From NCBI GenBank assembly GCA_050253415.1, contig JBFWJC010000002.1, positions 608,725 through 672,724 on the forward strand: 64,000 nt of DNA, in the 5' to 3' direction. Positions 27,814-56,304 of the stretch are shown here, piece by piece (position 1 is the stretch's first letter; each line of letters starts with the position of its first letter). Both the position numbers and the translations under genes were made by a program. Source of the stretch: Pedobacter sp. (GTDB taxonomy: Bacteria > Desulfobacterota > Desulfuromonadia > Desulfuromonadales > Syntrophotaleaceae). The notes beneath the pieces were generated by a model. It had not been told where the DNA came from. It saw nothing but the letters and a program-made list of their open reading frames with translations, and ran no database searches.

Positions 27814-28160
27814 CGGATCCTCCCTGTTGCGATGCTGCGTGTTTCGCTTGCCGTATGGAGCCCGCCGAATATATCACTTTGTAATTATTATCAAAAATAT
27901 CTTTTTGGGCTGTTTTCGTACGCGGTTGTCGTGCTGTCGTTGGCAACCCTGCACCTGCAAATGCGCGGAGGAATGTCGGGATGGGGAACGGGTATTTTGC
28001 AGGTGGGGGCGAATAATGAAACCTTGGTGGACATGGAATGTGCGGATATTTATGACTCTATCCACAGCAGCTGTGTAAAACTCCCCGCACAACTCTGGAA
28101 ATGGAGGCGGTGGTGCTTGATTTTTCGAAGGAATCACCTGTTTGCCTATTGTTTAGACAC

Positions 28161-28186
28161 CCGGGGAAAAGGTGAATATTCCCCGG
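28161..28186 (-). terminator. Hairpin just downstream of the porin gene
   Basis: CCGGGGAA...TTCCCCGG, 5 nt from the stop codon. Confidence 0.55.
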
Positions 28187-28191
28187 CTCTG

Positions 28192-30204
28192 TTAAAAAAT
28201 CATGCTACAGGTTGCTCCGATGAGATGGGCGCTGTAGTTGTCCGATCCGTCGCTCGCATTGTCGTCGTAATTGTAGAAGCCGTAGCGCAGCTTGACGGAC
28301 AGGTTATCGGTAATTCGCCGGGTCAGGCTGGCAAGTACGGCATGACGTTGATTTTCAACCCCCAAAGGTAAACCGGTGCTGGCAATATTCTCGAAATTTT
28401 CCGCCAGACTGAAAGAGTATTGGATGTTGAGGTTGGTGCGAGCATCCAATGCCATTCCGGCGCTGGCCGCCAGTGACAGGACATCGCCGTTATATGAAAC
28501 GACCGTATTATCGCCCACATTGACGGTTTCAAGTCTCACATCCTGGTAGGAGACCAAACCGGTGAGAAAGAGGCCGGCCAAGGGTGTTGCAGTAAGACTG
28601 GCGGTGTAGATGCTGGAGTCGTAGTTGGTTGTCTGTACGGAACTGGTCGGATCCGTATCCTCGTCGGTATCGATATTCATGGTCGTGAACAGGTACTTCA
28701 GGGAAGCCCGGATGCGCGATACCGGCCGAAAGGAGACTTTGGCCATCACCGTGTGGGTGGTGAAGTCCTGGTCGAGGATAAAAGCGGAATAACTGTCCGT
28801 ATTGTCCCGCTCATGATCGTAATCGTTGGACCGATAGCTGAAGCGGTAGCGGGCAGCGACCGTGGTTCGGGGCAGCGGAGAGCTGTTGAAGCCGATGCTG
28901 TAACGTTGGCGCCTCACCTGCGTGTCGGTATCCCGGTCCAGCTCCAGGGCCCCGTCCTCCAGTTCCGTTTCGGTAAGGTTGATGTCCTGTTGCGTCCAGC
29001 GGCCTTCCGCGTAAACGGTGGTGCGGGGCAGACCGGTATAACGGATCCCGAGCGTTTCCTCGATACCCACCTTGTTTTCCTCGCTGTCACTGATGGCCGA
29101 TGGGGACTCCAGGGTCCCAACGTCGTCAACAACCTCGGTCAGTATGGCATCGGTATCCCCATGTTTGTCCAGCTTCTCTCCCTGCAGGCCGAGGTAGATG
29201 GTGGTCTTATGGAAGGGGCCGAAGGTGGCATTGATGTTGGCAATGTGCACATCCTGATCGATGTCAATGACATTGGATAGCCAGTGCTTGTCACGGTTTT
29301 CATTTCCCGGCAGGGTTGCCATGCGAAATGAGGCGTCGCCTTCCAGGGTGGTGAAGAGATAGCCCAGAGCGAGAAAGGTTTTTTCGTTCAGATGGGTCGA
29401 CGCATGGAATGTGTTGTACAAAGCATCGTGCTCATAGTCCTCATTGACGGTTACCGTCTCGGTGGCGGTAGGATCGCCGATTTCGATCGCCTTTTCGTGA
29501 CGCCTGGTATCGATACGATAGCTCTCATAGCGGAACTCATCGCCTAGCTGGATATTGGCGATCTCATGGCTGATCTCCAGTCTCACTACATCCGTTTTTT
29601 CGTCGATCTCCTTGAACGAGGGGAAGATCAGCCTCTGCGTACCTCCTTCACTGACTCCACCCCATTCAAGCAAGGATTTTTCTCCGTCCTTGAAGCGGTG
29701 TTCATAGCCGACGATGAGCTTCGGGCGGTTGGGCAGGGTCAGGCCTGCTTCGATGAAAGCGTTACCGATATCCAGGTGCATATCCTTACCCAGGTCGAAG
29801 GATGACTCGCTGAAGGAATTAAAGAATCCGCCCGTGTCGTCGAAGTACTTGCGGTACTCCTTGTAACCGGCGTGCACATATCCGATATCCTGCCGGTCGA
29901 CATGCAGGTCGAGGCGGTAGTTTTCTTCGGGTACGATGGCACGTCCCTGCACCTCGATAGTTGTCTTATTGCCCAGTTGGCGGCGCAGGCTGAAGTTGTC
30001 TATTCCGCCGGTCACCCCATCCTCCAGCCAACTGTCCTCGCGAAATTTGTTGTCATCGCCATCCACAAAGATGCCGCTGAGCGAGGGAGAGATTGTGATG
30101 GCTCCGGTTGTCGAATCATCGTTTTCTGCTGCCCGAAGTTCTCCGCCCGACACAGCCAGGGAGGAAATAAAGGCCAGCACGATACCGAACAGAATGGGTT
30201 TCAT
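28192..30204 (-). CDS. Outer-membrane beta-barrel, MtrB/PioB-like porin
   Basis: Signal peptide, 670 aa, alternating amphipathic strands, 'KFRED' near the N-terminus, terminal Phe; follows an MtrA-like cytochrome. Confidence 0.78.
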   Translation of the reverse strand: MKPILFGIVLAFISSLAVSGGELRAAENDDSTTGAITISPSLSGIFVDGDDNKFREDSWLEDGVTGGIDNFSLRRQLGNKTTIEVQGRAIVPEENYRLDLHVDRQDIGYVHAGYKEYRKYFDDTGGFFNSFSESSFDLGKDMHLDIGNAFIEAGLTLPNRPKLIVGYEHRFKDGEKSLLEWGGVSEGGTQRLIFPSFKEIDEKTDVVRLEISHEIANIQLGDEFRYESYRIDTRRHEKAIEIGDPTATETVTVNEDYEHDALYNTFHASTHLNEKTFLALGYLFTTLEGDASFRMATLPGNENRDKHWLSNVIDIDQDVHIANINATFGPFHKTTIYLGLQGEKLDKHGDTDAILTEVVDDVGTLESPSAISDSEENKVGIEETLGIRYTGLPRTTVYAEGRWTQQDINLTETELEDGALELDRDTDTQVRRQRYSIGFNSSPLPRTTVAARYRFSYRSNDYDHERDNTDSYSAFILDQDFTTHTVMAKVSFRPVSRIRASLKYLFTTMNIDTDEDTDPTSSVQTTNYDSSIYTASLTATPLAGLFLTGLVSYQDVRLETVNVGDNTVVSYNGDVLSLAASAGMALDARTNLNIQYSFSLAENFENIASTGLPLGVENQRHAVLASLTRRITDNLSVKLRYGFYNYDDNASDGSDNYSAHLIGATCSMIF

Positions 30205-30219
30205 GGCGGTCCTCCTCTG

Positions 30220-31005
30220 TTAGTAACGCAGATGGGAGTTCATGTTGGAGCCATGAACGGCGGTGTGACAGCCAGCGCTCCAACAGGTGCCCCGACGAAG
30301 TCGAGAGGCATGGTTCGATCCCCCCAGTTCTGCATTATCCGCCGCCGTAATCTGCGCATGACAACGCAGGCACAGATTGGCATCGCTGGCGACTAGCAAT
30401 TTGTCGTTAATGGAGCCGTGCTGATTGTGGCAGGTTGTGCAGCCTTCCCGCAGCGCTTCGTGCTCGAAGACAAAAGGCCTTCCCTGATCCTGATGGCATT
30501 GACTACAGGGAGCATTGTCCTGGCCGACCATCTGATTGCCGGGCAGCATGATGTTCTGGCCGTGAGGGCTGTGGCAGTCGATACACCCGACCCCCTGCTC
30601 AGCAAGAGGATGATGGTACTGTAGACTGCGATAACCCTCGATCTCCGGATGACATTGGTAGCAGGTTGCGGGGTCCTTGCCGGGGTTGATGATGTGTTGG
30701 CCCCGGCCACCGCCGGCGGCCATGTGAAGGCTGCCGGCACCGTGGCAGGATTCGCAGCCAAGCACTTCCTTCCCATCAGGCAGCGTCACTGTGAGTTTGG
30801 CGTGCCTGGCGTATTTGAAATTCTTTACCGTCTCGGGATGGCACAAGGCACAGCTTTCCATGCCGATATATTCCGCTCCCGGCACGGTGGCGGGAGGTGG
30901 AATCTCACCACTTTTCATGGAGGGACAGGCAAGCAGCAGCAGGGGCACCAGGCCGGCGAGGGCCAGGCCAAACATTCTTTTTGAGAAGATTTTAGATTTT
31001 TTCAC
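30220..31005 (-). CDS. MtrA/DmsE-like multiheme cytochrome c lipoprotein (7 CXXCH + 1 CX4CH)
   Basis: Lipobox LLAC; CALCH, CESCH, CYQCH, CIDCH, CSQCH, CTTCH, CLRCH, CWSAGCH; C-terminal 'VHGSN'. Confidence 0.85.
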   Translation of the reverse strand: MKKSKIFSKRMFGLALAGLVPLLLLACPSMKSGEIPPPATVPGAEYIGMESCALCHPETVKNFKYARHAKLTVTLPDGKEVLGCESCHGAGSLHMAAGGGRGQHIINPGKDPATCYQCHPEIEGYRSLQYHHPLAEQGVGCIDCHSPHGQNIMLPGNQMVGQDNAPCSQCHQDQGRPFVFEHEALREGCTTCHNQHGSINDKLLVASDANLCLRCHAQITAADNAELGGSNHASRLRRGTCWSAGCHTAVHGSNMNSHLRY

Positions 31006-31113
31006 TGCTTGCCTCCTTTATGAATGAATCTGTAACGGCTGTTTTAAAGCCATTTCAAACTGTAGGGTCCAAGGGTGTTCGTAATACCGCACTTGCTACG
31101 GTTTTGGAGACAA

Positions 31114-32607
31114 TCACGGTGCGCCGGCGTGACAAAGAGTACAGGGGAGTCCTCCGGGAATATCCCCGCCCGGATGAGCGAACGGTAAGCCTGCCAGGTT
31201 GCTGGTGGCCGGTGCTTTGCCCAAGGCCTGGGAAATGATGGTGTGGCAGGCATTGCAGTCGTTGGAGATGGTTTTCCCTGTGGCGCTCACATGCTCTCCA
31301 TCATGACAGCGAAAACACCCTGGCCAGTTGCGGTGACCGATATTGTCGGGGCGTACTTGCCAGGTCGTTTTCATCTCAGGAAAAAAATTGTTGCGATAAA
31401 TGTTCTGTGCTTCCGCAACCGCCTGGCGGATTTTTGCTTGATCTGCGTAATCCGGATATTTGGCGGAAATTAACTCGTCGATCTGTCTCAGTCCTTCGGC
31501 CCGCGATCCTGCCCCGGAACTCTGCACAAGGGCTGTGGCCGCATTGCGCTTAATGGCAGGGATGGCAGCATCGACGCGGTTAAGCCAGAGGGCGATATCC
31601 AGGGCATCGTTGGGGGATTGAAATATGTGGGTCGGGCGATTGTGGCAGTCGATGCAGTCCATGCGCCGTGGTCCCGGGGGCTTCGATCCTCTCGTTGCAG
31701 CGCTGTCAGCCGTTTGGTAGATCGTGACCTCGCCGGTAGCGCGGGTGGCGCGCACCCAGGGGATGGTTTGCCGGCTTTTATCGGTCGGCTGGTATTCGAT
31801 GTCATTGCCGACGGCCATGTGCCAGTGAATCCCTCCCACGGGGCCATGCAGCGGATTGGCGCCACCGACCTTGATCATCATCCGGATGTCAAAGGGTGTA
31901 TTGTCCGTATCGGACAGATAGTGCCGACGCAGCAGTTCCGTGGAGCCGTAGAACTTTTCCGGCCAGTGGCACTGTTCGCAGGTTTCCCGGGCCGGCCGCA
32001 GATTTTCGACCGGAACCGGAATGGGGCGGGGATACGAGTTGGTGAGTACCGCGTATACCTGCCGCAATCCCGATACCTTGGCCCGCACGTACCAGGAGGC
32101 CCCTGGTCCGATGTGGCACCTTGTGCAGGCAACCCGGGCGTGAGGTGAGTTCAGGTAGGTCGTGTGGACAGGTTCCATGACCTGGTGACACAAAAGGCCG
32201 CAGAAAGCGACCGATTCCGTCACCTGGTAGGCCCGATAACTGCCGAAGACAGAAAAAAGCAGAAACACGAATCCGATGCACACCGTCAGGATCACGTTGC
32301 GTCGATGGCGGGGATTATTCAAGTCGATATATGGAAGTCCGGGTTTATATTCCGGTGCTCTCCGCAGTCGACGCTGATGCCAGGCGCCCGCCCCTATGAG
32401 TAACAGACCTGCAAACACCGCACCGGGAAGAATGACGTAGACCAGCACCCCCAGATAGGGCCGATTGAAGCCCAGAAAAATATCGAAGGCGATCAGAATG
32501 AGCAGGGCGAGCAGCGAACAGGCGGTCACGATGATGCCCGCCAGGCCAAGCCAGTTGCCGGCGTATGCCAGCAGTCCTTTTGGAGGCTTTGGGGAGGTTT
32601 CGGTCAT
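31114..32607 (-). CDS. imcH: ImcH-like inner-membrane heptaheme cytochrome (NapC/NirT domain)
   Basis: 3 TMs; CGLLCH plus six CXXCH; 'SPHARV.C..CH.GPGA.WYV.AK.SGLRQV', 'LRPARETCEQCHWPEKF', 'RMDCIDCHNRPTH', 'PGCFRCHDG' match my recollection of Geobacter ImcH. Confidence 0.85.
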   Translation of the reverse strand: MTETSPKPPKGLLAYAGNWLGLAGIIVTACSLLALLILIAFDIFLGFNRPYLGVLVYVILPGAVFAGLLLIGAGAWHQRRLRRAPEYKPGLPYIDLNNPRHRRNVILTVCIGFVFLLFSVFGSYRAYQVTESVAFCGLLCHQVMEPVHTTYLNSPHARVACTRCHIGPGASWYVRAKVSGLRQVYAVLTNSYPRPIPVPVENLRPARETCEQCHWPEKFYGSTELLRRHYLSDTDNTPFDIRMMIKVGGANPLHGPVGGIHWHMAVGNDIEYQPTDKSRQTIPWVRATRATGEVTIYQTADSAATRGSKPPGPRRMDCIDCHNRPTHIFQSPNDALDIALWLNRVDAAIPAIKRNAATALVQSSGAGSRAEGLRQIDELISAKYPDYADQAKIRQAVAEAQNIYRNNFFPEMKTTWQVRPDNIGHRNWPGCFRCHDGEHVSATGKTISNDCNACHTIISQALGKAPATSNLAGLPFAHPGGDIPGGLPCTLCHAGAP

Positions 32608-32662
32608 AGTTTCCCCTGGTTACGAGATCCGTTGTCGGCCGTTCCTGCCGGAGGCGAGAAGT

Positions 32663-32974
32663 CTATGGTTTAGGTGCTGAACGGAGATAATGGAGCATGG
32701 TCTTCATCTCTTCATCTGTAAGTTTGTATGCGGGCATGCGGGTGTCGGCTCCTAGCGCTTCCTTGGGGCTGACGATGGACTGCTTCAGGAAATCGTCGGT
32801 TTTTCCTTCGGCGATCCCGGCCAGAGGCTGGGCCATCCCCCCATCCTTGTGGCAGATGGTACAGCGATTTTTTTCGGCGAGGGCTTTGCCTGCAGCCGTC
32901 ATTTCACAGTCCGCCGCTGCCGGTACGGTAAATCCGACGAGCACCAATGCGATGCATAGGGATTGGACTTTCAT
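32663..32974 (-). CDS. Periplasmic monoheme class I cytochrome c
   Basis: Signal peptide, CTICH, distal Met candidate 'RMPAY'; GAGGAGG RBS. Confidence 0.85.
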   Translation of the reverse strand: MKVQSLCIALVLVGFTVPAAADCEMTAAGKALAEKNRCTICHKDGGMAQPLAGIAEGKTDDFLKQSIVSPKEALGADTRMPAYKLTDEEMKTMLHYLRSAPKP

Positions 32975-33127
32975 GGTGACCTCCTCACACTTTCAATAAC
33001 TGTTTGTTTGGCCTGCCTTCAGGTGTCCGCTTGGCGTTCCATCTGCTGCACAAACCGTTGGCGGAATGAGCCGACCTGGTGGTTTTTACGGTCCTGCGAA
33101 CCTGTTTCTGTTCTTAGCGCGGGTCAC

Positions 33128-33145
33128 TGTAAAAAAGTGTTTACA
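33128..33145. promoter_or_regulatory. Palindromic operator TGTAAA-N6-TTTACA upstream of the cytochrome operon
   Basis: TGTAAAAAAGTGTTTACA, perfect 6-bp arms. Confidence 0.55.
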
Positions 33146-33464
33146 AAATAAATACATACCTTGATATGCCACGATGTCAACCTGGATGCACCCGCGCTTT
33201 CGGGAGGATGCTGATATCCATTTTGGTCTTTTAGCCAAACTTATGGATATCGTTGATATTTATTCGCCATTATTTCAGGTCTGCGTGGATTGCAAAACAA
33301 CGGCACCATAGAAGCAAAATCGCATTGGTGCGCTGAATATCAAGGGGTGACCGTAATGCTTGACCGGAGATTCTGTGTCGCGCGCCATGTCCCGAGGTTC
33401 TTCGGGTATAATGACTCAAGCGGATCGTGCTCTTAATGTTGGCGTATGCTACAGGATATTTCCC

Positions 33465-34067
33465 ATGACTGACGTGCCTGTTTTGGAAGTGGTCTACGAT
33501 TACATCTGCCCGTGGTGCTATCTGGGTGCCGCCCACGCGGAACGTCTGCACACAGAGTTCGGTGTGAAGCTACGCTGGACCTTGTTCCCTCTGCATCCTG
33601 AGATCCCCACGGACGGCATGCTGTTGGCCGAATTGTTTCGCGGCCGGGCCTACGATGTCGAAGCCATGAACGATCGGTTGCAGGTGGCGGCGGACCAGGT
33701 CGGTCTGCCGATCGTCCGCCGGGCGCGTATCAGCAATAGTCGCCGGGCTCAGGAATTGCAAAAATGGGCCGAAAGTCTCGGTCGGGGAAATGCTTTTCGC
33801 CATGCGGTTTTCCATGCCTATTTCGTCGGAGGGAAGGACATCTTCGCCCTGGATGAACTGGAGGCTATAGCCGAGGCTGCTGGCTTGCCGAGGGCAGACG
33901 TTCAGACTGTTCTCCAGCAACGACGGTTCGCCGATGAGGTGGACGGCGACTGGCTGCGAACCCGGCAGTTGGCGATAACGGCGGTACCGTTTTATCTCTA
34001 CGGCGAAGAAGTGCTGGTGGGATTTCGCCCTTACGAGGATTTCGTCAAGTTGCTGGGCAAAACCTGA
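33465..34067 (+). CDS. DsbA/FrnE-family thiol-disulfide oxidoreductase
   Basis: 'DYICPWCYLG', 'FPLHP', 'ITAVP'. Confidence 0.85.
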   Translation: MTDVPVLEVVYDYICPWCYLGAAHAERLHTEFGVKLRWTLFPLHPEIPTDGMLLAELFRGRAYDVEAMNDRLQVAADQVGLPIVRRARISNSRRAQELQKWAESLGRGNAFRHAVFHAYFVGGKDIFALDELEAIAEAAGLPRADVQTVLQQRRFADEVDGDWLRTRQLAITAVPFYLYGEEVLVGFRPYEDFVKLLGKT

Positions 34068-34106
34068 GGTTTTCCTAAACCTGTCTCTTTTAGCGTGGAG
34101 GAGCAG

Positions 34107-35102
34107 ATGGCCGGTGAATCGTGGACTGCGCGGACCTTGCTGGAAGTTTCCAACGGTTACTGGCAGACCTGCGCCCTGCACGCGGCAGTCAAGCTTGACC
34201 TGTTCAGTTGTCTGGATGAACAGGCTGCCGTGGCGGCCGACCTGGCCCAAAAGGTCGGGGCCGATCATGCAGCACTGGAAAGGCTCCTCAATGCCCTGAC
34301 CGCCATGCAGCTGCTGACCAAAAGCGGTGAGCGTTATGTTTGTACGCCCAGTGCCGCCGAGTTTTTGTCGCGGCAATCGCCCCGTTATCTGGGGCATATT
34401 ATTCTTCACCACAGGCACTTGATGGACTCCTGGTTGCATCTTGATGAGGCGGTAACCAGCGGCCAACCCGTGCGCAAGAAACCCTTTTACGTGGATAAGG
34501 AATCGCTGGAGAGCTTTCTGCTCGGGATGTCCGCTCTGGCCATGCTGCTGGCGCCAAAGGTGGTCGATAAAATCGACCTGTCCGGGCGTCGCCGGCTGCT
34601 TGATCTGGGAGGCGGGCCGGGAACCTGGGCTCTCCACTTCTGCCGGGAAAACCCCGGGCTGGAGGCCACTGTTTTCGATCTGCCAACGACACGCGACTTT
34701 GCCGAGGAAGCTATCGCCCGCTTCGGTCTTGGTGACCGTGTTGCCTTTGTCGCCGGCGACTTTCTGACCGAGGGCGTACCCGGCCGGTACGACGTCGCCT
34801 GGCTCTCGCATATCCTGCATGGCGAGGGGCCGCAGGAGGTGCGAACCATTCTGGATAAGGCAGTTTCTTCCCTTGAACCGGGAGGTCTGCTGCTGATTCA
34901 CGAATTCGTCCTCGACAACGACCTGGCCGGACCACTGTTCCCGGCGTTGTTTTCCCTCAATATGCTGCTGGGCACACCGGGCGGACGTACGTACTCCGCC
35001 CAGCAGCTGTTTGACGCCTTGCGAGCAGCGGGGTGTAAAGATCCACGCCTGCTATCCCTTGATCTGCCGGGGGGATCCTCCATTATCGCGGCTATTGTCT
35101 GA
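34107..35102 (+). CDS. SAM-dependent O-methyltransferase (dimerisation + Methyltransf_2)
   Basis: 'LLDLGGGPG', 'VFDLP', 'AGDF', 'SHILH'. Confidence 0.88.
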   Translation: MAGESWTARTLLEVSNGYWQTCALHAAVKLDLFSCLDEQAAVAADLAQKVGADHAALERLLNALTAMQLLTKSGERYVCTPSAAEFLSRQSPRYLGHIILHHRHLMDSWLHLDEAVTSGQPVRKKPFYVDKESLESFLLGMSALAMLLAPKVVDKIDLSGRRRLLDLGGGPGTWALHFCRENPGLEATVFDLPTTRDFAEEAIARFGLGDRVAFVAGDFLTEGVPGRYDVAWLSHILHGEGPQEVRTILDKAVSSLEPGGLLLIHEFVLDNDLAGPLFPALFSLNMLLGTPGGRTYSAQQLFDALRAAGCKDPRLLSLDLPGGSSIIAAIV

Positions 35103-35237
35103 ATCGGTGTCGCTGATTTACGGCCGCTGCCTTCCCATGATGCCCATCCGCAGGTTGGGGCGTTTTGTATTCCCGGCTCGATGGCCTTGTCATCGGAATC
35201 GCGCCTGTTGGTCACCCCTTAACCACAGGAGAGCGCC

Positions 35238-35831
35238 GTGAGCCGAAGCATCGACGACCTGATCCGTAAAATGCACGCATTGGAAGAAGAACTGCAGGTG
35301 GAGTACCGCAAAAAGAGGGAAGAGTTCGACTTCATCATCCAGGAGAAGCGGGTTCGTTTCGCCGCGGAGATAGCCCTTCAGCAGCGCCGCTTCAAGTCCG
35401 GTATTTTCGGATATCTCCGGCACGCCCGGCTCCTCAACATCCTGACTGCGCCCATCATCTATGCCGGCTTAGCGCCAGTTATTCTGCTCGACCTGTTTTT
35501 GTGGGCCTACCAGGGGATCTGTTTTCCGATCTATGGAATCGCCAAGGTGAAACGTTCCGATTATCTCGTTTTTGACCGGACAGACCTGCCGTATCTCAAC
35601 ATCATCGAAAAGTGTAACTGCTTCTATTGTTCCTATGTCAACGGCCTGGCGGCATTCCTGCGGGAGATCGCTGCGCGTACCGAGCAGTACTGGTGCCCCA
35701 TCAAGCATGCCCGAAGGATTCGCGATGCGCACAGCCTTTATCCCCGCTTTTTTGAATTCGGCGACGCCGAAAGTTATGGGAAAGGGTTGGAGCGGCTCAG
35801 GGAGGAGTTGAACCAAGGCGAAGAGAAATGA
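35238..35831 (+). CDS. Hypothetical membrane protein with Cys/His motif
   Basis: GTG start with AGGAG RBS; TM segment; 'EKCNCFYCSYVNG...EQYWCPIKH'. Confidence 0.7.
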   Translation: MSRSIDDLIRKMHALEEELQVEYRKKREEFDFIIQEKRVRFAAEIALQQRRFKSGIFGYLRHARLLNILTAPIIYAGLAPVILLDLFLWAYQGICFPIYGIAKVKRSDYLVFDRTDLPYLNIIEKCNCFYCSYVNGLAAFLREIAARTEQYWCPIKHARRIRDAHSLYPRFFEFGDAESYGKGLERLREELNQGEEK

Positions 35832-36219
35832 TGTGCCAGTCGGAAGAGCATACCTGCGTTTGGCATATGATCAGAAAGGAACAGCTTGCACTTTCCTTTT
35901 GTTTGGTACGGATGTTTATGGAACAAATGCTTTTTTATGAATTTTAGAACTCTGCAAGCTACTTGTAGCTAAAAATCCAAACCATATTGTGCTCGGGCTG
36001 ATGCTGCCAACAGCGTGCGGATGCTTGGGACGCTGCTGTTTATTCCCAGGACCTGAAACTGAAGTGTCCTCTGACGCTTTGGACGATTGCGTAATGTGTG
36101 CTATAAAAAATGATCTGCTGCGTTACATGCTGGATGTTCGCAATGCCGGGAGGGCTGCGGTCGGAGGTTGGTTGGCGTGGTGGACTACAGAAAATGAACG
36201 GTTCATAAGGAGGAAGATT

Positions 36220-36993
36220 CTGTCATTTTTCACGAAAAAGAAGCCAGCAAAGGCCATTAAAGCGGTCTTTTTTGATCTCGACGGAACCCTGCTTGATGTG
36301 GAGATGAACGGATTTATCGCTGCCTACATCGAAGGGCTGGGCCGTCATTTTTCCGATGTCGCTATGCGTTACAACTTCGGTTCCGCTTTAAGGGAAGCGA
36401 TGATGGCCTTGCTGGAGGGGAAAAATGGATTCGACAGTAACGAGCAGCTGTTCTTAGCTGTACTGCAGCAGCGCCTCGGTATCGATGCCGACCTTTTTTT
36501 CGCTCGTCTTGAAAATTATTGCGTAGATGGCCTGTCTCGTCTTCAGACTTTCGTCAATCCCCTGCCGCTGGCGCGACAAATTCTCGACCAGTGTCGTGCC
36601 CTGAACCTTACCGTGGTACTTGCCACCAACCCGGTTTTTCCTCGCGCCATCGTTGATGCCCGCCTTGCCTGGGGCGGTATGGGCGATTTCCCGTTCGATC
36701 TTGTAACCTCCATCGAAAATACCCGTTTTTGCAAACCCGATCCCCGTTATTTCTCTGATCTTCTCGACCGTTTCGGCCTCGCCCCCAAAGAAACCATCAT
36801 GGTGGGCAACGATACCGAGCACGATCTTGCCGCTCTCGATGTCGGTATGAAGACCTTTCTTGTCGATACCTGGCTCATTGACCGCGGCAGCAATTTCGAA
36901 CCCGATTATCGTGGAGGACACCAGGATCTTCTCATGTTTCTGGAAGGCCTCGGACCGTTTGGTGGTATAAAAATCATGGATCATCTCCGTTAA
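36220..36993 (+). CDS. HAD-family hydrolase (start uncertain; CTG at 36220 proposed)
   Basis: 'FDLDGTL', 'ATNP', 'CKPDP', 'MVGND...D'; TAAGGAGG at 36206-36213. Confidence 0.82.
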   Translation: MSFFTKKKPAKAIKAVFFDLDGTLLDVEMNGFIAAYIEGLGRHFSDVAMRYNFGSALREAMMALLEGKNGFDSNEQLFLAVLQQRLGIDADLFFARLENYCVDGLSRLQTFVNPLPLARQILDQCRALNLTVVLATNPVFPRAIVDARLAWGGMGDFPFDLVTSIENTRFCKPDPRYFSDLLDRFGLAPKETIMVGNDTEHDLAALDVGMKTFLVDTWLIDRGSNFEPDYRGGHQDLLMFLEGLGPFGGIKIMDHLR

Positions 36994-37058
36994 TCCCAAT
37001 GAATTCCAGCCCGGATAACCCTTACATGTGACACCGCAAAATTCCTGCAGACATAAAC

Positions 37059-37089
37059 AGCCCTCCCGTGATCCGGCGAGGGCTTTTTC
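37059..37089 (+). terminator. Rho-independent terminator
   Basis: AGCCCTC-CCG...CGG-C-GAGGGCT followed by TTTT. Confidence 0.7.
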
Positions 37090-37322
37090 ATACCTGAAAG
37101 GCTTTGTCTCCACGACAAAATCTTCTCCCCGTACAGAAAATTTCGTGAAACAGCAGGCTTATTTATTCAGGGAGTGATTGAAGAAGGTCAATAAAAGTCC
37201 GGAATAAAAAGAGTATGGATTGAAATATAGGAAGCTAAAGGTAGTCGTTAAATAGGTGAAACCGGCTGCGCAGTGTAACAAAACGTCACATCGGAAGAGT
37301 GCTTGTTTCAGGAGGAATGCGG

Positions 37323-38228
37323 ATGGCTGAACCGATGCTGAGGCAGTTGATAGCGAAAGTCGCCGGTCAATCGTGGTTGCGCAAGGCTGTGATGAGTACT
37401 CCCGGCATTCGCGACCTTGCCTGGCGGTTTGTGGCGGGGGAGAATCTGGATGCCGGAATTGCGGCGCTGAAGTCGCTTAACGCTCGCGGTATCAAGGGGA
37501 CGCTGAATTTCATAGGCACCCACGTCAAGAATGAAGCCGAGGCCGTGGCGGCCGCCGACGCGGCTATCGAGGCGCTGCGACGCATACACGCGGAGGAGCT
37601 TGACGGTAACCTGTCGGTCAAACTCACGCAGATCGGACTGGATATCGATAAGGCCCTCTGTCGCGCGCAATTGCGACGGATCCTGGAGTGCGCCGCGCAG
37701 GTGGGAAACTTTGTCCGCATCGACATGGAAGAATCTCGCTATGTGGAACCCACCCTGCAAATCTTTGAGGAGATGCTCGATGCCTATGGCGCCGATACGG
37801 TGGGGATCGTGTTGCAATCCTACCTGCTTCAACGCAAAGCCGACCTCGAACGCATGCTCGCCAGGGAGGCCAGGATTCGACTGGTGAAAGGCGGATACTG
37901 GGAAGCGGCCGAAATCGTGTATCGCAAGAAGTCCGACATCGATAATGCCTTTCGCCGGGATCTTGAGGTGCTCCTGCCGCGTGGGCGGTATCCGGCCATC
38001 GCTACGCACGATGCGCGGTTTCTGGCCCAGACACGGCATCTTGCCGGTGAGGCTGGTATCGAGCCGCAGGCGTTCGAGGTTCTGTTGCTCTACGGCGTAC
38101 GGACCGATCTCCAGAACGACTTGGTGCGAGATGGTTATAACGTGCATTGCTATGTTCCGTACGGGGGTAAATTGTATGCGTATCTGCTCGGTAGTGTCCG
38201 CCGCATTCCCTGGGGGGGCGCCGGGTGA
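37323..38228 (+). CDS. Monofunctional proline dehydrogenase family protein
   Basis: 'RFVAGE', 'SVKLTQIG', 'RIDMEE', 'LQSYL', 'RLVKG', 'ATHD', 'LYG', 'YVPYG'. Confidence 0.85.
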   Translation: MAEPMLRQLIAKVAGQSWLRKAVMSTPGIRDLAWRFVAGENLDAGIAALKSLNARGIKGTLNFIGTHVKNEAEAVAAADAAIEALRRIHAEELDGNLSVKLTQIGLDIDKALCRAQLRRILECAAQVGNFVRIDMEESRYVEPTLQIFEEMLDAYGADTVGIVLQSYLLQRKADLERMLAREARIRLVKGGYWEAAEIVYRKKSDIDNAFRRDLEVLLPRGRYPAIATHDARFLAQTRHLAGEAGIEPQAFEVLLLYGVRTDLQNDLVRDGYNVHCYVPYGGKLYAYLLGSVRRIPWGGAG

Positions 38229-38377
38229 GCGAGTGGGTTCGACCCATGTCATGACGAGTACGCATACCAATCCCTGCTTGACGGCTGGTCTGCGTATTAT
38301 GGTGTGTCTCCTTCCCAGGGCGGATTTTTCCCGTCCTATCGATCGCTTCCTGACACGGATCCCCAGCCTCCGACTGA

Positions 38378-39256
38378 TCACAAATAATCAAGAATAGAAA
38401 GGCTCATCACCCGTGTGCTGACGCTCAGGGCGGCTTCCAGAGATTCCTCAGCCAGGGTCATATCACTTAAAACTTCCACCAGATCGGCATCTTCATAACT
38501 GGAAAGGGTGGACTGCATCTGCAGTTTGGCGTCCTCCATGAGGGACATGCTGTCCTCCATGCGGGCGTTGATGTTGCCCATTTTGCTGCGCTGCCGGGTG
38601 ACCTGGGTGGCCGCGTTTTCGAGGGTGTCCAGTTGCTCTCCCATAGCCGTGGTGTCTGCGCTGGACAGGGCTTCTTGAAGGGTGGACAGGGTGTCAAAAA
38701 TGTCCACCGGATCGCTGAAAAGTTCGTCGCCGGTGATATTGGTCTGTACCGTCTGGCCGGGCCCGATCTGCAGGAATTTGTGGTCGCTGGTGCCGCTGTA
38801 GGTGACCGGGTCGCCACTGAACGGCGCGGTGGTATCGCTGAAGCCGGCAAACAGGTACTTGCCATCGACCCGGGTGTTGGCGATGCTGAGCATCTGTTCC
38901 TGCAGGGCCGCCACTTCTTCTGCATACGATTGCAGGTCATGGTCGGTCAGCGATCCGTTAACGCCGGCGACGGCGATTTCCCGGGCTCGCGCCATGATGG
39001 TTTCGGCGGAATCGAGATAGCTGTCAACGGTGTCCATGCGATCCTGGGCAACTTCGATGTTTTCCATGTAGCGGTCCATGCCGGTAATGGCGCTGCGGGC
39101 GCTGCTCACTTTGGAAACGGTCGTCGGATCGTCGGAAGCGCGGGTCATTTTCTTTCCCGTGGAGGCCTGCAGATACAGACTGTCAACGCGACTGTTGCTT
39201 TGGCGGATGGCGAGCTGGATGCTGCGATAGGTTGAGCTGGCTGTGGTTCTCATCAT
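38378..39256 (-). CDS. flgL: Flagellar hook-associated protein 3
   Basis: 'STGKK..RASDDP', 'ANT..DGKYLFAG', C-terminal 'LSILDYL'. Confidence 0.92.
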   Translation of the reverse strand: MMRTTASSTYRSIQLAIRQSNSRVDSLYLQASTGKKMTRASDDPTTVSKVSSARSAITGMDRYMENIEVAQDRMDTVDSYLDSAETIMARAREIAVAGVNGSLTDHDLQSYAEEVAALQEQMLSIANTRVDGKYLFAGFSDTTAPFSGDPVTYSGTSDHKFLQIGPGQTVQTNITGDELFSDPVDIFDTLSTLQEALSSADTTAMGEQLDTLENAATQVTRQRSKMGNINARMEDSMSLMEDAKLQMQSTLSSYEDADLVEVLSDMTLAEESLEAALSVSTRVMSLSILDYL

Positions 39257-39262
39257 TGCTCC

Positions 39263-40666
39263 TTATAAAGCCATCAGGGTGTCGAGCATGTCCTGCACCA
39301 CCGAAAGGTATTTGGCCGCGGCCTCGTAGCCGCTCTGGTACTGGGTCAGCAGTACCATTTCCTCGTCAACCGATACCCCGGAGATGGAGTCCCGCAGGTT
39401 TTGAAGCTGCATCAGGGCGTCTTCGCTGGCTTCAGTGGCGGTGCTGTTGCGACTGACGGTTGTGCCGATTCCGGCGGCGATCTGGTCGTAGTAGTCTTGA
39501 AAGGTGGCGTTTCCATTCATGGTCGCCGTGCCCTGCAAGGCGGTCATGAGCAGGGTGTTGGTATTGTCGCCGGACAGGGTGTTGGAGCCGGTCAGGGTTC
39601 CTGCAGCTACCTGATCGGTGTCGGTAAGAGCCAGGGATATGGAGCCTGCCGCGCCGGCCCATGGCGCATCCGGGTCGGAGGAAGCGGCAAGACTGAAGAA
39701 AGCGCTGCCGCTGTTGCCGTCCAGGTCGACTCCAGAGCTATGCACGGTGTTGACACTTTCGGCGAACTGCCAGGCCAGCTGGTCCAGTTGCGCACGCGCC
39801 TCTTCGATGGTTTCATCCCGCACCGTCATCAGTCCCTTGAGCGTTCCCCCCAGATCGTCGTTGTCGATTTTGACCGCAGACGCTCCGGTAGCGACGCTGA
39901 GCTGGATTGTGCCGTCCGTCCGCTCCGTTGTAATGGCAAAGAAATTCCCTGCGATGACCAGCGGCACGCCGGATGCCAGGTTTACCGATACCGCGCCATT
40001 GTCCATTTCGTAGTATTGAATGCCGGCGGTCCCGGCGACTTCCTGCAACAGCAGGTCCCGTTCATCGCGCAATCCGTTGGCCGCTACGCCGCCGGATTCC
40101 ATGGAGACGATTTGCGTATTGAGGTCCGCGATCTGCGCCAGTTGGCTGTTGAGGGTGTCCACTTCCACTGTGATATTCTGGTTGATACCTTCCTGCAGGT
40201 CGGCAAGGTCCTGATCCATTTGCACAAAAGCGGCGGCGAGTTGCTCTCCCATTTGCAAGACTTCCTCGCGTTCGATGCTCTTGCCGGGGTCGCTGCTCAG
40301 CGCTTGCCAGGCATCGAAAAAATCATCAATGGCCGAACTCAGGTTCCCCTCGGAAATGCCAACGATACTTTCCAGGGTAGCGAGCGGCTCGGTCTGGGCT
40401 GCTGCTTCGCCGTAATCGGCATTTTTGTTTACCAGTTGGCTGGTGACCAGTGCGTTCTCTGTACGGCTGATGCCGCTGACCGATGCTCCCTGGCCGACAA
40501 AGGTGCCGTTAAACTCCAAAGCCGGTGCCGAAGCAACCTGCACCACCTGGCGGGAATAGCCTTCGGTGTTGGCGTTGGCGACATTGTTGCCCGTTACTTC
40601 GATGCCGATCTGGTTAACCGTCAGTCCGCTCTGCCCGGTATGGAGGGAGGAAATAAGTCCGCTCAT
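39263..40666 (-). CDS. flgK: Flagellar hook-associated protein 1
   Basis: 'VTGNNVANANTEGYSRQ', 'LRDERDLL', 'SGVSVDEE...YQ..YEAAAK'. Confidence 0.95.
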   Translation of the reverse strand: MSGLISSLHTGQSGLTVNQIGIEVTGNNVANANTEGYSRQVVQVASAPALEFNGTFVGQGASVSGISRTENALVTSQLVNKNADYGEAAAQTEPLATLESIVGISEGNLSSAIDDFFDAWQALSSDPGKSIEREEVLQMGEQLAAAFVQMDQDLADLQEGINQNITVEVDTLNSQLAQIADLNTQIVSMESGGVAANGLRDERDLLLQEVAGTAGIQYYEMDNGAVSVNLASGVPLVIAGNFFAITTERTDGTIQLSVATGASAVKIDNDDLGGTLKGLMTVRDETIEEARAQLDQLAWQFAESVNTVHSSGVDLDGNSGSAFFSLAASSDPDAPWAGAAGSISLALTDTDQVAAGTLTGSNTLSGDNTNTLLMTALQGTATMNGNATFQDYYDQIAAGIGTTVSRNSTATEASEDALMQLQNLRDSISGVSVDEEMVLLTQYQSGYEAAAKYLSVVQDMLDTLMAL

Positions 40667-46526: not shown

Positions 46527-47573
46527 TCATAGCTGCGGCATGGTTTGCCATGACTGCTGAGTAGCAAAAAGTTGCTCGTCATCCTGCAGGCGTTTTTCTA
46601 TCTCTACAAAGGCGTCGATGTTTTCCATGAAAAGGTCGATCAGCGTCGGATCGAACTGGATACCGCGTCTTTCAAGCATATAGTTTTGCACCTCTTCAAT
46701 GCTCCAGGCTTTTTTGTAGGATCTTTTCTGTAACAGGGCATCGAAAACATCGGCGATGATGGCGATTCTGCCTCGGATATCGATCTCTTCGGCCCGCAAC
46801 CCCCGTGGATAACCGCTGCCGTCCCAGTGCTCATGATGTTCAAGGGCGATGACGGCTGCCGAACGAAGCAGTTTGCGGGTGGAGTGCTGCAGGATTTTGA
46901 AGCCGGCCAAACTGTGTTGTTTGACGATAGCGAACTCCTCAGGGGTCAAGCGACCGGGTTTTTGTAAAATGGCGTCCGGGATGGCAACCTTGCCAATGTC
47001 ATGCATGGCTGAGGACCAGCGGATCTCTGTGCAGGTCTGTTGGTCGAGGCCGCTAATTTGGGCGAGCAGGCTGCAGATTTCGGCGACTCGGTGGATATGC
47101 TTGCCCATTTCAATGCATTTAAATTCACAGGCGTTGCCCATCATCAGAATGATCTCTTTTTGTGTCTCTTCGATTTCCAGATCGTGGTAACGCTTTAACT
47201 GCAGATGGGTTTTTACTCTGGAGTTCAATTCGTAGGAATTGAACGGTTTGGTGATATAGTCCACCCCGCCCGTTTCGAAGCCTTGTACCAGGCTGTCTGC
47301 ATCGGTTTTGGCTGTCAGGAAGATGATCGGGATATCCCGGGTTTGAGGGTCGTTTTTTAAGCGATTACACACCTCGAAACCGTCCATTGGCTGCATGATG
47401 ATGTCCAGCAGGATCAGGTCGAAGTCATGTTCTTTTACCCGTTCGAGAGCTTGTTTTCCGCTTGTGGCAAAGATCATGTGATAGTTTTTGTGTTCCTTGA
47501 GAATGTTGATCCCGACCTGGATGCTTTTCAGGTCGTCGTCCACAACCAGTATCGTGTGTGCCGGTTCAGACAT
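46527..47573 (-). CDS. Response regulator with HD-GYP phosphodiesterase domain
   Basis: Receiver 'VVDD...LLDIIM..KP'; 'MHDIGK', 'HHEHWDGSGYP'. Confidence 0.92.
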   Translation of the reverse strand: MSEPAHTILVVDDDLKSIQVGINILKEHKNYHMIFATSGKQALERVKEHDFDLILLDIIMQPMDGFEVCNRLKNDPQTRDIPIIFLTAKTDADSLVQGFETGGVDYITKPFNSYELNSRVKTHLQLKRYHDLEIEETQKEIILMMGNACEFKCIEMGKHIHRVAEICSLLAQISGLDQQTCTEIRWSSAMHDIGKVAIPDAILQKPGRLTPEEFAIVKQHSLAGFKILQHSTRKLLRSAAVIALEHHEHWDGSGYPRGLRAEEIDIRGRIAIIADVFDALLQKRSYKKAWSIEEVQNYMLERRGIQFDPTLIDLFMENIDAFVEIEKRLQDDEQLFATQQSWQTMPQL

Positions 47574-50500
47574 TTGTTTGCGCCTCCGTTTGCTTGATTC
47601 TTTGGATAAGGTCAGGGTATTGAAACATCAGCTCATATATTTCGCCGATATCGAAATTTTCGACGCATGTGGATAATTTGTCGGTGTACTGCTTCAAAAA
47701 GGTGCTGTTATGGGCATCAGCAAGTTGTGTCAGTTCATGGCAGAACCCTTGGATGAGCTGGATGTCCCCTTTGTCTCGAACTGCCTGCCACAGCCTGAAC
47801 AGGTCATTTTCCATCCTGGCGGCAATGGCAGCGCGGACTTCCTCGGTTTCAGTCAGTGACATCGATTTAAGATCGTTATCGTCGGGCGCTTTCTGGGTGC
47901 ATGGCAGGAACTCGGACAACGTCCTCAATAACTGTTTTTTCTCTACCGGTTTTTGGATGTAGCCGTTAAACCCGAAATTCTCGATTTTGCTAAGGTCGTC
48001 TACCAGTACCGAGGCGGTCAGAGCTACGATCGGAAGATGCCGGAACGCTTCGTCTTGGCGGATTTCCCTGGTTGCCTCGTAACCGTTCATGACCGGCATG
48101 CGCAGATCCATCAAGAGTAGATCGACCGGTGTTGTTTGCAACTGTGCGATGGCATCCCGTCCGTGTGCCGCTTCTATGACCGTTACGGCGGTGCTGGAAA
48201 AGGCCGCTTTAACCAGGGTTCGGTTGTCGGGGATGTCATCCACCACCATAACCGTTGCAGGTTCGAAAATGATGTCTGTTTCCGGCGTAGCATCCTGGTT
48301 ATGGGTGGCAACGGAACTGACGGCAATATCGTGCAGCGTGACGGAAAATACCGACCCCTCGCCAACCTTGCTGGTGACCGTGATTTCGCCGTTCATCATA
48401 TCGACCAGCTTTTTGCAGATGGCAAGACCCAGGCCGGTGCCGCCGTACTTACGGACATCCTGGCCTTCCTGTTGTTCGAATACCTGGAATATTCTGTCCA
48501 GATTCTTCTGGGGGATGCCCATGCCGGTATCGGCGATCTGCAAGACCAGATCGAGCTTACTTTGTTCGGCGTCCTTATACACTTTTTTTACACCAAGGGT
48601 GATGCTTCCTTTTTCGGTGAATTTGATAGCGTTGCCGATCAGATTGAACAGAATCTGCCGTAGGCGGATGCCATCGAGGATAAGGTAATCGGGTATTTTT
48701 GAGTCGATCTCTATAATGAAGCGCAGGTTTTTCTGCCGGATTTTAGCTTGAAAGAGTTGTTCCATTTCACCGAATAAAAGATGCGGGTTGATGCTTTCGT
48801 ATTCCAGCTTGAGCTGGCCGGCTTCAATTTTGGAAAGGTCGAGGATGTCATTGATAATGCCGAGCAAGGCCTTGCCACCGACCTTGATGGAACGCAGATA
48901 GCTTTTTTGCAGCGGGTCTTCGATCAGGTCGTCCAGCAGGTCGGTAAAGCCGATCACCGAGTTCATAGGGGTACGGATTTCATGGCTCATGTTGGCCAGA
49001 AATTCACTTTTGGCCCGGGTTGCCTGCTCGGCCGCATTTTTGGCCAGCAGCAGTTCCTGTTCGGCGGCCTTACGCCGGGAAATGTCTTCGCAAACCCAGA
49101 TAAAGCCAGTGGCAGTTGCATCGTCGTTTAAGACCGGTGTGACGACCATGCTTATCCAGAACAACTTGCGGCATTTTTTTTCAAACTGAAGCTCTGCCTG
49201 CCAGGTTTTTCCACGCAGGATATCCTGCCACATATTGGTGTATAGATTTTCATCGTTGGCACTACAGGCAAACATGTTGATGTTTCGACCGATAATCTCA
49301 TCCTGAGCAAAGCCCGTAATCTCATAAAACGCATTATTGGCATATTCGATCCGTCCCTTGTCGTCGGTCATGACCACTGAGACGGGAGTGAATTCCAGGG
49401 ATAGGTGCAGTCTTTTAAGCTCTTTTTCAATCCGGATTCTTTTCCTGATTTCCTGGGAGAGGCGTCGATTCCAGTAGAGGGTCCCAACGATAATCAACAG
49501 CAGAACGCCGGCGATTTGCCACAGCAGCGTGTAGTCCACGGTCGCTTCGTACTCAAATTTTACCCAACGCCGATAAATCTCTCTGCGTTCGGTCAGATCG
49601 ATGCTTGCCAGGGCCTTGTTGATGATCGATCTCAGCACCGGTTGGTTTTTCCTGAAACCGAAATGCAGAGGAAAGGAGTAGGGGGTGCCTCCGGATACCT
49701 TCAGGTTGCTTAACCCAAGCTTTTCGCTGACAAAATCCAAGGTCGGAAGATCTACGATAAAAGCGTCGAGTTTCCCCATTGATAGCGCCTTTAAACCGGA
49801 TTCCGCATTGGCAAAGGCGCGTAGCCTGATGTCAGGGACATCGCGTTGCAACAATGTCTCAGTGATGTCTCCTTGGACAACACCGACTGTTTTTTCCGAA
49901 AGTTCGGTAACGCGGCTTATAACGGGGCTTTTATCCGACCCTACAATGACATTGTCGATACGGATGTGCTGCTGGGAAAAGTCCATGAAATTCCGGCGTT
50001 CAAAGGAATATCCAGTGGCATCGAGCATATCGATCTTTTGTTGTGTGAGCGCCTCTATGGCATCGACATAGGAACTCAGATGTTGGGCTGAAAAACGTAA
50101 TCCAGTGCGTTCGTGGATCAAACGCAGATAATCCGAAATGATGCCGGCATATTCTTCATCTTTTGTGAAAAACGACACCGGTTCCCTATTCGGGTCTCCA
50201 GCAATGGTTATTTCCGGATGGGCTTTGATCCATGCTTTTTCAGTTTCGGTCAGCAATACCTGTTTGTGCTTGCTGTCTGGACTGTTGCCCAGCCATTTAC
50301 GGTCGATCGCATCTTTTTCTTCTTGTGTTATGGCTTTGAGTGCTTTTTGCAGCATGGCGAGAAGCACCCTGTTGTCTGCGTTTGTCGCCATGCGCAATCC
50401 CGTGGCGACCAGCTTTACCGGAAAGGCTGCTTTGATCCCAGCCAGCCCCGACTGGTTGGAAACGTGACCCACGGCGCCAAAAGTGTCGATATAAAAATCG

Positions 50501-55608: not shown

Positions 55609-56304
55609 CATACCTCCTTGTGGTGGTTAATCTTGCCGTGCCTGGAAGGTTGTTTTGGGTTCCCTTGTCGCCCGGAATTTTAAAGATATGCGGCTGCTGT
55701 GTTCCGGACATTGTCCGCTATTTATAGACTCGCGTTGGCAAATTGACAGCATTCGTTGCCAAATATTTTTAAAATATATGAAAAATTTCATTGGATAATT
55801 TAGTATACAGAAAATTACTTAAATATCTATAAGCTCTTAGCGTTGTAGGTCGACTAGCAAATCGTTTGAAATTTTACGGCCTATCAGATCCAAACCTCTG
55901 GTTGGTTTCGTTCGCTGGAATCAACAAGATTATGAAAAAAACCCGAATGGTTATACGCAAAAAGGAGATCTTTGTAATTGGTGTCAAAAACCATCAGCAT
56001 CAGAGGCAGGCGAATTGTTAGGTGTATTGCAGGTGTGCAGAACGAGCGTCTGCCTGTTGCGTTATCAGTTATGGTCTGGTCGGTTTGGTCGGAAAGGCAC
56101 TGGGGATTTTTCCCTGGAAACGTGGCGTCTGGATATAAATATCGCCCTGGCTTTAGTGCTGCTGGTTCTGATGTGGTTATAGTGGCCGATTCGAAGGGGC
56201 ACACCCGTCTCCTTTGCTTGGTAACGCGGGGGCAACCTGCTTTGTGCATCAAGATGGGGGCTGGCGGCGGATACGACAGGGCATCCGCTGTTGCTGCATA
56301 AAGT

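Follow-up and report, generated by a model that had tools for sequence, protein, structure and literature searches.

Several described systems bear on the four-gene cytochrome cluster considered here, which lies on the minus strand (positions 28192..32974) of a 64,000-nucleotide stretch of DNA from Pedobacter sp. (contig JBFWJC010000002.1, positions 608,725 to 672,724; this whole stretch is called the window below), a genome that the GTDB lineage places in the Desulfuromonadales, family Syntrophotaleaceae. In the solved MtrAB complex of Shewanella (6R2Q), a heme wire runs inside a 26-strand barrel, and the gene for the cytochrome immediately precedes that for the porin. The Mto system of Sideroxydans lithotrophicus ES-1 (mtoA, mtoB, mtoD, cymA/imoA) brings together a monoheme class I cytochrome, an MtrA-type multiheme cytochrome, a porin and a NapC/NirT-related cytochrome, with no extracellular cytochrome (PMC6295460; this paper, PMC5615132, PMC6344600, PMC11492766 and the preprint 10.1101/2023.05.03.539133 are cited throughout for the passages available of each). 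In Geobacter sulfurreducens, the cytochrome ImcH (GSU3259) interacts with menaquinol, and the cell needs it to use extracellular acceptors of high potential (PMC4251993; preprint 10.1101/2023.05.03.539133), while the Geobacter porin-cytochrome (Pcc) systems, such as OmaB-OmbB-OmcB and ExtABCD, come with an extracellular cytochrome that is a lipoprotein and, by published account, share no homology with Mtr (PMC6344600). Finally, He et al. (2017, mSphere) described, in Verrucomicrobia from bog and soil, a putative novel system that pairs a porin of at least 20 strands with a multiheme cytochrome having eight conserved heme sites, and suggested that it reduces humic substances; homologues of the Shewanella and Geobacter systems were stated to be absent (PMC5615132).

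All the parts of the window cluster are of known kinds, and the pair formed by its octaheme cytochrome and its porin has already been described as a putative system; going by sequence, what is joined here looks like a Geobacter-type inner-membrane cytochrome and a shortened Shewanella-type outer-membrane module. In the direction of transcription the genes encode a 103-aa monoheme class I cytochrome c (32663..32974), a 497-aa ImcH-family heptaheme cytochrome (31114..32607), a 261-aa octaheme MtrA-related lipoprotein with a GTG start (30220..31005) and a 670-aa outer-membrane beta-barrel, or porin (28192..30204). The coordinates of these open reading frames (ORFs) confirm what the first-pass annotation, made from the sequence alone, had read there: four co-oriented minus-strand genes separated by 55, 108 and 15 nt. 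Its assignments also hold for all four products (a monoheme with a Met ligand, a NapC/NirT-type heptaheme of the ImcH kind with three transmembrane helices, an MtrA-like octaheme lipoprotein and a barrel) when examined with Pfam, NCBIfam, phmmer, heme motifs, and AlphaFold2 (AF2) models searched with Foldseek. We lean, by a modest amount, towards reading the four genes as one operon that builds a minimal quinol-to-surface conduit working in the export direction. As far as the literature goes, a 2018 survey of 71 ImcH homologues reports no mtrAB/mtoAB next to imcH (PMC6295460), and we did not find a prior printed report of ImcH and a monoheme in one operon with an MtrAB-like pair; nor did we find one of imcH beside mtrAB-like genes, a statement about text, since the figures and tables of PMC6295460 and Figure 7 of PMC5615132 might show such a case.

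By sequence, the 497-aa protein displays every feature that the literature gives for ImcH, namely three N-terminal transmembrane helices and one CX3CH plus six CX2CH motifs (PMC4251993; PMC6295460). A Kyte-Doolittle scan finds three hydrophobic segments (residues 22-40, 53-71 and 105-123), the CX3CH motif stands at residue 136 and the CX2CH motifs at residues 161, 210, 318, 431, 451 and 489, and the NapC/NirT-like region is recognised by Pfam Cytochrom_NNT over residues 102-192 (E 9.3e-11). In addition, E131, H141, K177, Q183 and Y192 of the window protein are spaced exactly as E127, H137, K173, Q179 and Y188, the residues that the published list places around heme 1 of G. sulfurreducens ImcH (preprint 10.1101/2023.05.03.539133). 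The two differ in their settings and partners: the Geobacter gene is monocistronic (PMC4251993), so the first-pass annotation was right that imcH is not encoded with the porin-cytochrome clusters there; the in vitro partner of its product is the triheme PpcA and not a monoheme (preprint 10.1101/2023.05.03.539133); and the window protein belongs to a separate subclade. We propose that it serves as a menaquinol oxidase, or as a quinone reductase should the chain run inward.

At the outer membrane, the octaheme carries seven CXXCH motifs, a terminal CX4CH and a lipobox Cys27, and every one of 22 homologues keeps Cys27 and all eight heme motifs. It is clearly related to MtrA: a phmmer search of the PDB aligns residues 107-256 with residues 175-326 of the MtrA chain in the Mtr complex (6r2q_A, E 2.3e-23), the aligned part being the C-terminal half of MtrA. 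It stays below the cut-offs of the decaheme families, with 137.7 against 192.2 bits for TIGR03508 (DmsE-family, NCBIfam) and 143.7 against 325 for NF041028. Its last heme motif, CX4CH at residues 241-247 and likewise invariant in all 22, would by the MtrA alignment hold the heme expected at the surface end. The porin, for its part, has a signal peptide and no heme motif, and no Pfam family matches it at E <= 0.01, MtrB_PioB (PF11854) included; a few of its database relatives carry a precomputed PF11854 label, and a long-form relative scores 19.6 bits on that model, below its 23-bit cut-off.

The fold predicted for the porin is that of MtrB. An AF2 model built from an alignment of 26 relatives has 26 long strands (predicted local distance difference test score, pLDDT, 84.6; predicted template-modelling score, pTM, 0.76), and its top Foldseek match is 6r2q_B, which is MtrB (E 1.4e-15, TM-scores 0.67/0.69), while the next matches are 22-strand TonB-dependent receptors at TM-scores of about 0.4. 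The first-pass annotation had set a test in advance, that the 670-aa protein should model as a large barrel housing the cytochrome, and the test was passed: in complex prediction the barrel and the octaheme reach an interface score (ipSAE) of 0.90 in each of three runs, while the highest-scoring of three controls gives 0.00; the mark applied is reached by 116 of 157 solved complexes and by 2 of 215 mismatched pairs. The partner has a pLDDT of 77-79, at least 85% of contacts are common to the runs, and the 336-356 contacts are spread along many strands and fall mostly on octaheme residues 116-261, which fits a predicted arrangement with the C-terminal part of the octaheme inside the barrel and its N-terminal, lipid-anchored part towards the periplasm. 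MtrAB has of course been solved already, and the pass therefore shows likeness rather than proof. We propose that the octaheme is a heme wire threaded through the barrel. The pair differs from MtrAB in having eight hemes and not ten, an invariant N-terminal lipobox and a last motif of the CX4CH type, in lying below the NCBIfam DmsE/MtrA cut-off and outside Pfam MtrB_PioB, in being encoded with no MtrC partner, and in standing beside the quinol oxidase ImcH in place of CymA.

The 103-aa monoheme has a signal peptide and a single CXXCH (CTICH at residue 38), matches Pfam Cytochrom_C (E 3.5e-9) and, in an AF2 model with a pLDDT of 82.5, adopts a generic class I cytochrome fold. All 13 aligned relatives, the verrucomicrobial ones included, keep C38, C41, H42, D60, M80 and Y96, and because H42 and M80, the candidate axial ligand in an MPAY motif, are among these residues, the sequence makes His/Met ligation likely. 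The nearest solved folds found by Foldseek are c551, c552, mitochondrial cytochrome c and the c-domain of caa3 oxidase, with TM-scores of 0.54-0.60 and E values of at least 0.024. We propose that this protein is the periplasmic carrier between ImcH and the octaheme. A Cys23 that lies two residues past the predicted signal-peptide cleavage site occurs also in three of the four closest aligned relatives (L087, L088, L095), and is absent from L089 and from more distant relatives. The sole signals of kinship to the selenite/tellurite Ext operon are a match of the monoheme to NCBIfam ExtS (E 0.0087) and one of the porin to GSU2204 (E 6.6e-4), both far below the cut-offs.

A likeness to the Mto system of Sideroxydans had also been drawn in the first-pass annotation, and of this the four-part layout stands, together with the shared absence of an extracellular cytochrome, while the correspondence of individual parts largely does not. 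The inner-membrane part in the window is the three-helix heptaheme ImcH and not a CymA/ImoA-type tetraheme with one helix, the lipoprotein has eight hemes and not ten, Fe(II) oxidation is not known for the host, and the monoheme is not a detectable relative of MtoD. For this last point we relied on PDB chain 4xxl_A, deposited as 'Cytochrome c class I', which we take to be MtoD: phmmer gives E 0.34 against it, and 4xxl is not among the 50 best Foldseek folds, so a relationship beyond the general class I fold is unsupported. The Geobacter Pcc systems are alike by description in their three-layer logic and in their eight-heme periplasmic OmaB (PMC5615132), and the window cluster differs from them in having no OmcB-like gene. 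Indeed, as had been noted from the sequence, no further cytochrome gene, and so no extracellular one of the MtrC/OmcB type, belongs to the cluster.

The arrangement is not confined to the window, as a search of imcH neighbourhoods suggested in the first-pass annotation reveals. The porin family has 854 cluster representatives at E <= 1e-3 (306 at E <= 1e-30), and ImcH has more than 7,900 homologues; we surveyed 80 porin-centred metagenome loci and 80 ImcH-centred genome loci. In 75 of the 80 porin-centred loci the porin gene is immediately preceded by the octaheme gene, the five exceptions being cut at that edge, and ImcH is nearby in five; four of these five are close relatives of the window and share its gene order, and the fifth, L133, has the order octaheme-porin-monoheme-imcH. 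Among the ImcH-centred loci, five, all from Verrucomicrobiota, have octaheme and porin just upstream of imcH, and two more that are truncated show the porin only; a 105-115-aa monoheme of the same family sits between porin and imcH in six of these seven loci (all but L080, which was left out). The four-part set thus recurs in the order octaheme-porin-monoheme-imcH in the Verrucomicrobiota loci L042, L048, L058, L059 and L065, whose octahemes are 44-48% and whose porins are 24-28% identical to those of the window, as well as in L133. The system of He et al. is matched by description, its porin adjoining an eight-heme cytochrome with an extracellular multiheme sometimes in the cluster; ImcH, a monoheme, a lipoprotein anchor and an MtrA/MtrB relationship go unmentioned in the passages available of that paper (PMC5615132), whereas the window octaheme is clearly MtrA-related, the barrel has the predicted MtrB fold and the host belongs to the Desulfuromonadales.

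All 13 of the ImcH proteins linked in this way fall in one 34-row clade of a 109-row ImcH tree, and a monoheme ORF lies directly upstream of imcH in 20 of 33 loci of that clade against 4 of 57 loci with room for one elsewhere, a count made by a crude ORF rule on relatives that are not independent. Porins 44-50% identical to that of the window have no ImcH within 7 kb, while ImcH proteins 55-59% identical to the window's have the monoheme and not this porin, and a monoheme-imcH pair without this porin is seen at L006, L011 and L012. The linkage with ImcH, as sampled, is a minority arrangement found in two gene orders and in one ImcH subclade only. Because two gene orders exist and because the closest relatives of each half are unlinked, we infer that monoheme-imcH and octaheme-porin are separate units and came together more than once, which argues for a functional link between them.

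Two variants of the outer-membrane pair turned up in the porin-centred sample. Long-form porins of about 790-830 aa have an N-terminal PSCyt1 monoheme domain ('Planctomycete cytochrome C', PF07635, E 1.8e-14) fused to the barrel (L136:6440-8950, L148, L166, L116, L122 and L173, all metagenome loci), and this fused domain may stand in for a separate monoheme carrier. In eight of the 80 loci (L114:3576-6146 and seven others), a protein of 856-915 aa with about nine hemes, resembling MtrC/MtrF and containing an MtrC/MtrF domain II/IV (PF22113, E 1.4e-13) and a PKD domain, is encoded directly upstream of the octaheme, which gives a three-part form like MtrCAB.

Within the host's order, ImcH is common (122 of 201 genomes), with an identity to the window protein of 35-46%; values of 51-59% are reached by outsiders, from metagenome-assembled genomes labelled Verrucomicrobiia, Desulfobaccales and 'delta proteobacterium'. 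The tree reflects this: the window clade lies within the 34-row clade together with Verrucomicrobiota and Desulfobaccales (Shimodaira-Hasegawa-like approximate likelihood-ratio test, SH-aLRT, 95), and the same-order ImcH proteins (16 'canonical' and eight 'second-type') fall in the other main clade. An approximately unbiased (AU) test, in which the group was named after the tree had been seen and L081, a single very long branch, was left out, rejects placing the window ImcH with those of its own order (delta lnL 180.6, p = 3.5e-5). Going by this tree, the window protein is not orthologous to the usual ImcH of its order, and the separate subclade and the rejection therefore leave either horizontal acquisition or an old paralogue lost by most of the order.

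The porin is found in four of 201 sampled genomes of the order, all four in the window's own family, and the same four of 17 family genomes have ImcH, octaheme and porin, all of them in the order monoheme-imcH-octaheme-porin; the monoheme gene was located directly upstream of imcH in each of the other three (G057, G105 and G110). Across the two genera concerned the four proteins are 60-86% identical in amino acid sequence, and gene order and spacing are kept. The three module-bearing genomes of the window's genus share the same site, beside aconitase and GGDEF genes, and the flanks differ in the other genus. In a complete genome of the same genus that lacks the module (G004), the flanks are conserved around about 2.7 kb, compared with about 11.4 kb in the window (27900-39270); this segment also holds genes for a DsbA-like protein, an O-methyltransferase and a HAD-hydrolase, along with unannotated genes.

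The host genome (4.1 Mb in 18 contigs) encodes one ImcH and one porin of this kind. The first-pass annotation had asked whether a second canonical imcH exists elsewhere in it, and the window copy proved to be the only one; the only other match to the ImcH query, a weak one (E 3.9e-5), is at G000:C1:941074-942987, where an NrfH-like ORF with six CXXCH motifs adjoins a 420-aa octaheme ORF. Sixteen ORFs in the genome have two or more CXXCH motifs and none has more than eight, and apart from the cluster the multiheme ORFs appear to be NrfAH, an octaheme enzyme with an NrfH-like partner, small trihemes and similar, two of the trihemes being of PpcA size. No MtrC/OmcB-type gene was found elsewhere in the genome with the queries used, among which the MtrC-like protein of L114 gave no match. 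Matches of PF22113 to NrfA and to a 548-aa multi-domain cytochrome were set aside as unspecific, the same model also matching Escherichia coli controls. The module is the only candidate outer-membrane conduit in this cytochrome-poor genome. The genome also encodes a heme-copper oxidase, a cytochrome bd and NrfAH. A pentaheme membrane cytochrome ORF (G000:C2:541951-542496) and the heme-copper oxidase subunit I (G000:C2:562266-563597) lie about 46-67 kb before the window, and the cytochrome bd is at G000:C1:300068-301354; these would be possible sinks if the conduit ran inward.

A Shine-Dalgarno-like sequence precedes each of the four start codons, and a consensus scan finds no terminator-like site in the three internal gaps. 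The hairpin with which the operon had been said to end is real (28161..28186, minus strand; an 8-bp GC-rich stem and a 10-nt loop beginning 5 nt past the porin stop codon, minimum free energy -19.4 kcal/mol), and is weak as a terminator, with a z of -1.96, eight of 200 shuffled sequences folding equally well or better, no U-tract behind it and no call by the terminator scan; it is a possible operon end. A promoter-like site at 33269..33296 on the minus strand (TTTGCA, a 16-nt spacer and TG-AATAAT), some 295 nt before the start codon of the monoheme gene, is a weak candidate, as the region has two such sites where shuffled sequence would give 4.3, which is not above chance. The flanks are unrelated to the cluster: upstream and divergent lie the DsbA-like gene and the O-methyltransferase gene, and downstream come an FMN-reductase-like gene, a TfoX-like gene and genes for a GGDEF protein and aconitase. 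GC content in the cluster resembles that of the rest of the window, and no transposase or integrase gene is annotated among the neighbours, although no systematic search for one was made. Elsewhere in the window there are two very long minus-strand ORFs (47566-51783, 1405 aa, and 52198-55611, 1137 aa).

Working from the layout, motifs, predicted folds, homology and co-conservation given above, we infer how electrons pass at each step, what the monoheme does, how the proteins sit in the envelope and which way electrons flow, with export favoured. Anchored in the inner membrane by its three helices, ImcH would oxidise menaquinol beside its first (CX3CH) heme, and the electrons would pass down its seven hemes to the periplasm, over which the soluble His/Met monoheme would shuttle them. 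Held at the inner leaflet of the outer membrane through a lipid on its N-terminus, the octaheme would have its C-terminal six or so hemes threaded in the 26-strand barrel, along which electrons would cross the outer membrane, and its last (CX4CH) heme would be exposed at the cell surface. No surface MtrC-like cytochrome is encoded, and therefore acceptors would have to reach the mouth of the barrel; these might be soluble or colloidal oxidants (chelated Fe(III), humic quinones or shuttles), a partner cell or a conductive particle. The module was called 'high-potential' in the first-pass annotation, a label borrowed by analogy from Geobacter genetics.

Several points weigh against an export operon, and much of this would suit a conduit that runs inward. 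In that case Fe(II), a reduced shuttle, a syntrophic partner or a mineral acting like a cathode would donate electrons to the octaheme in the barrel, which would pass them to the monoheme, and from there they would go both to a terminal oxidase or reductase and, via ImcH acting as a quinone reductase, to the menaquinone pool, with the logic of MtoAB-MtoD-CymA/ImoA in Sideroxydans. A His/Met class I monoheme is usually of high potential, and the type usually feeds terminal oxidases; c551, c552 and the caa3 c-domain, among the nearest folds of the window protein, are indeed terminal-oxidase donors. Placed between two low-potential multihemes, a high-potential carrier would by analogy be awkward for export and would fit uptake at least equally well, and for ImcH itself the hemes lie below -100 mV and no binding to the monoheme PccH was seen (preprint 10.1101/2023.05.03.539133). 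Porin-cytochrome pairs that have no surface cytochrome, such as MtoAB and PioAB, are linked to Fe(II) oxidation (PMC6344600), and the window pair resembles them in that neither the operon nor, with the queries used, the genome encodes a surface MtrC-like protein. Possible sinks for incoming electrons are present in the heme-copper oxidase, cytochrome bd and NrfAH, and many hosts of the sister arrangement are Verrucomicrobiota. Because of the His/Met carrier, the association of MtrC-less pairs with Fe(II) oxidation and these oxidases and reductases, the direction stays open, as the first-pass annotation had left it. Menaquinone reduction from Fe(II) is uphill, which counts against inward flow. 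Export is favoured because ImcH has been tied only to quinol oxidation, its homologues having been identified only in Fe(III) reducers (PMC6295460), and because verrucomicrobial relatives have been proposed to reduce humics; the monoheme, moreover, has no specific similarity to MtoD. We think an inward conduit improbable on this evidence, though the likeliest of the rival readings.

Other points trouble the idea that the four genes form one export conduit at all. The score of the predicted complex may come from the model having learnt the solved MtrAB structure; the host lineage is described, for its cultured members, as fermentative with few or no multiheme cytochromes (PMC11492766), and ImcH is notably absent from fermentative Pelobacter (PMC4251993); and with ImcH near so few porin loci, the outer-membrane pair is generally independent of it. 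The contrast between an octaheme in 75 and an ImcH in only five of 80 porin loci also lends something to the view that two unconnected units lie side by side, a monoheme-ImcH quinol dehydrogenase serving a periplasmic reductase and an octaheme-porin pair fed by other carriers, for example the two PpcA-sized trihemes that the genome does encode, with their adjacency a by-product of a variable genomic region. The monoheme-imcH pairs that do without this porin, and the absence of the 11-kb segment from a complete genome of the same genus, would sit well with this, but the halves are joined in two gene orders and two phyla, they are co-inherited in all four module-bearing family genomes with gaps of 15-108 nt in the window and no internal terminator-like site, the cluster contains no alternative periplasmic reductase gene, and apart from this ImcH the genome has no quinol-oxidising cytochrome of its type, and few of other types, from which the porin module could draw electrons, so we regard two unconnected units as distinctly unlikely. 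Even less can be said for the view that the cluster came in by horizontal transfer, has no function today and survives as a decaying or silent relic, which we consider very improbable: the patchy spread (four of 17 family genomes, and four of 201 for the porin in the order) and an ImcH of a type foreign to the order are what one might expect of it, while four intact ORFs with every heme motif present, strong ribosome-binding sites, a GC content like that of the rest of the window, and proteins that keep 60-86% identity over two genera with order and spacing preserved are not.

A further idea can be offered, tentatively, as something that we would sooner bet against than for. It is that monoheme-imcH and octaheme-porin are portable two-gene units, joined independently in different phyla into a self-sufficient four-gene 'plug-in' conduit, which was acquired horizontally here and wires a cytochrome-poor fermentative or syntrophic family to humics, chelated metals, conductive particles or partner cells. 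Were this true, the long-sought physiological partners could be named for one ImcH subclade, in the form of a His/Met monoheme carrier and an MtrA-like lipoprotein with eight hemes. The paper that introduced the name ImcH, in 2014, held that finding ImcH-interacting proteins would greatly improve the prediction of respiratory strategy from sequence (PMC4251993), and ImcH here, and across the whole subclade, sits with candidate partners for every later step, which makes for testable pairs. The locus also corrects the published statement that no mtrAB-like genes are adjacent to imcH, as that statement stands in the passages available (PMC6295460). With four genes in about 4.8 kb, it may be among the smallest complete quinol-to-surface conduits, and it is attractive for heterologous expression and for the engineering of electroactive strains.

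The window is one member of a wider, recurrent variant in uncultured bacteria, and its particular interest lies in its host, a cytochrome-poor bacterium from sediment. This host is an unexpected one, since the cultured members of the family are described as fermenters without ImcH and with few or no multiheme cytochromes (PMC11492766; PMC4251993, the former in the passages available). If the module works as we favour, some members of the family could use humics or metals for respiration, or pass electrons to and from partners.

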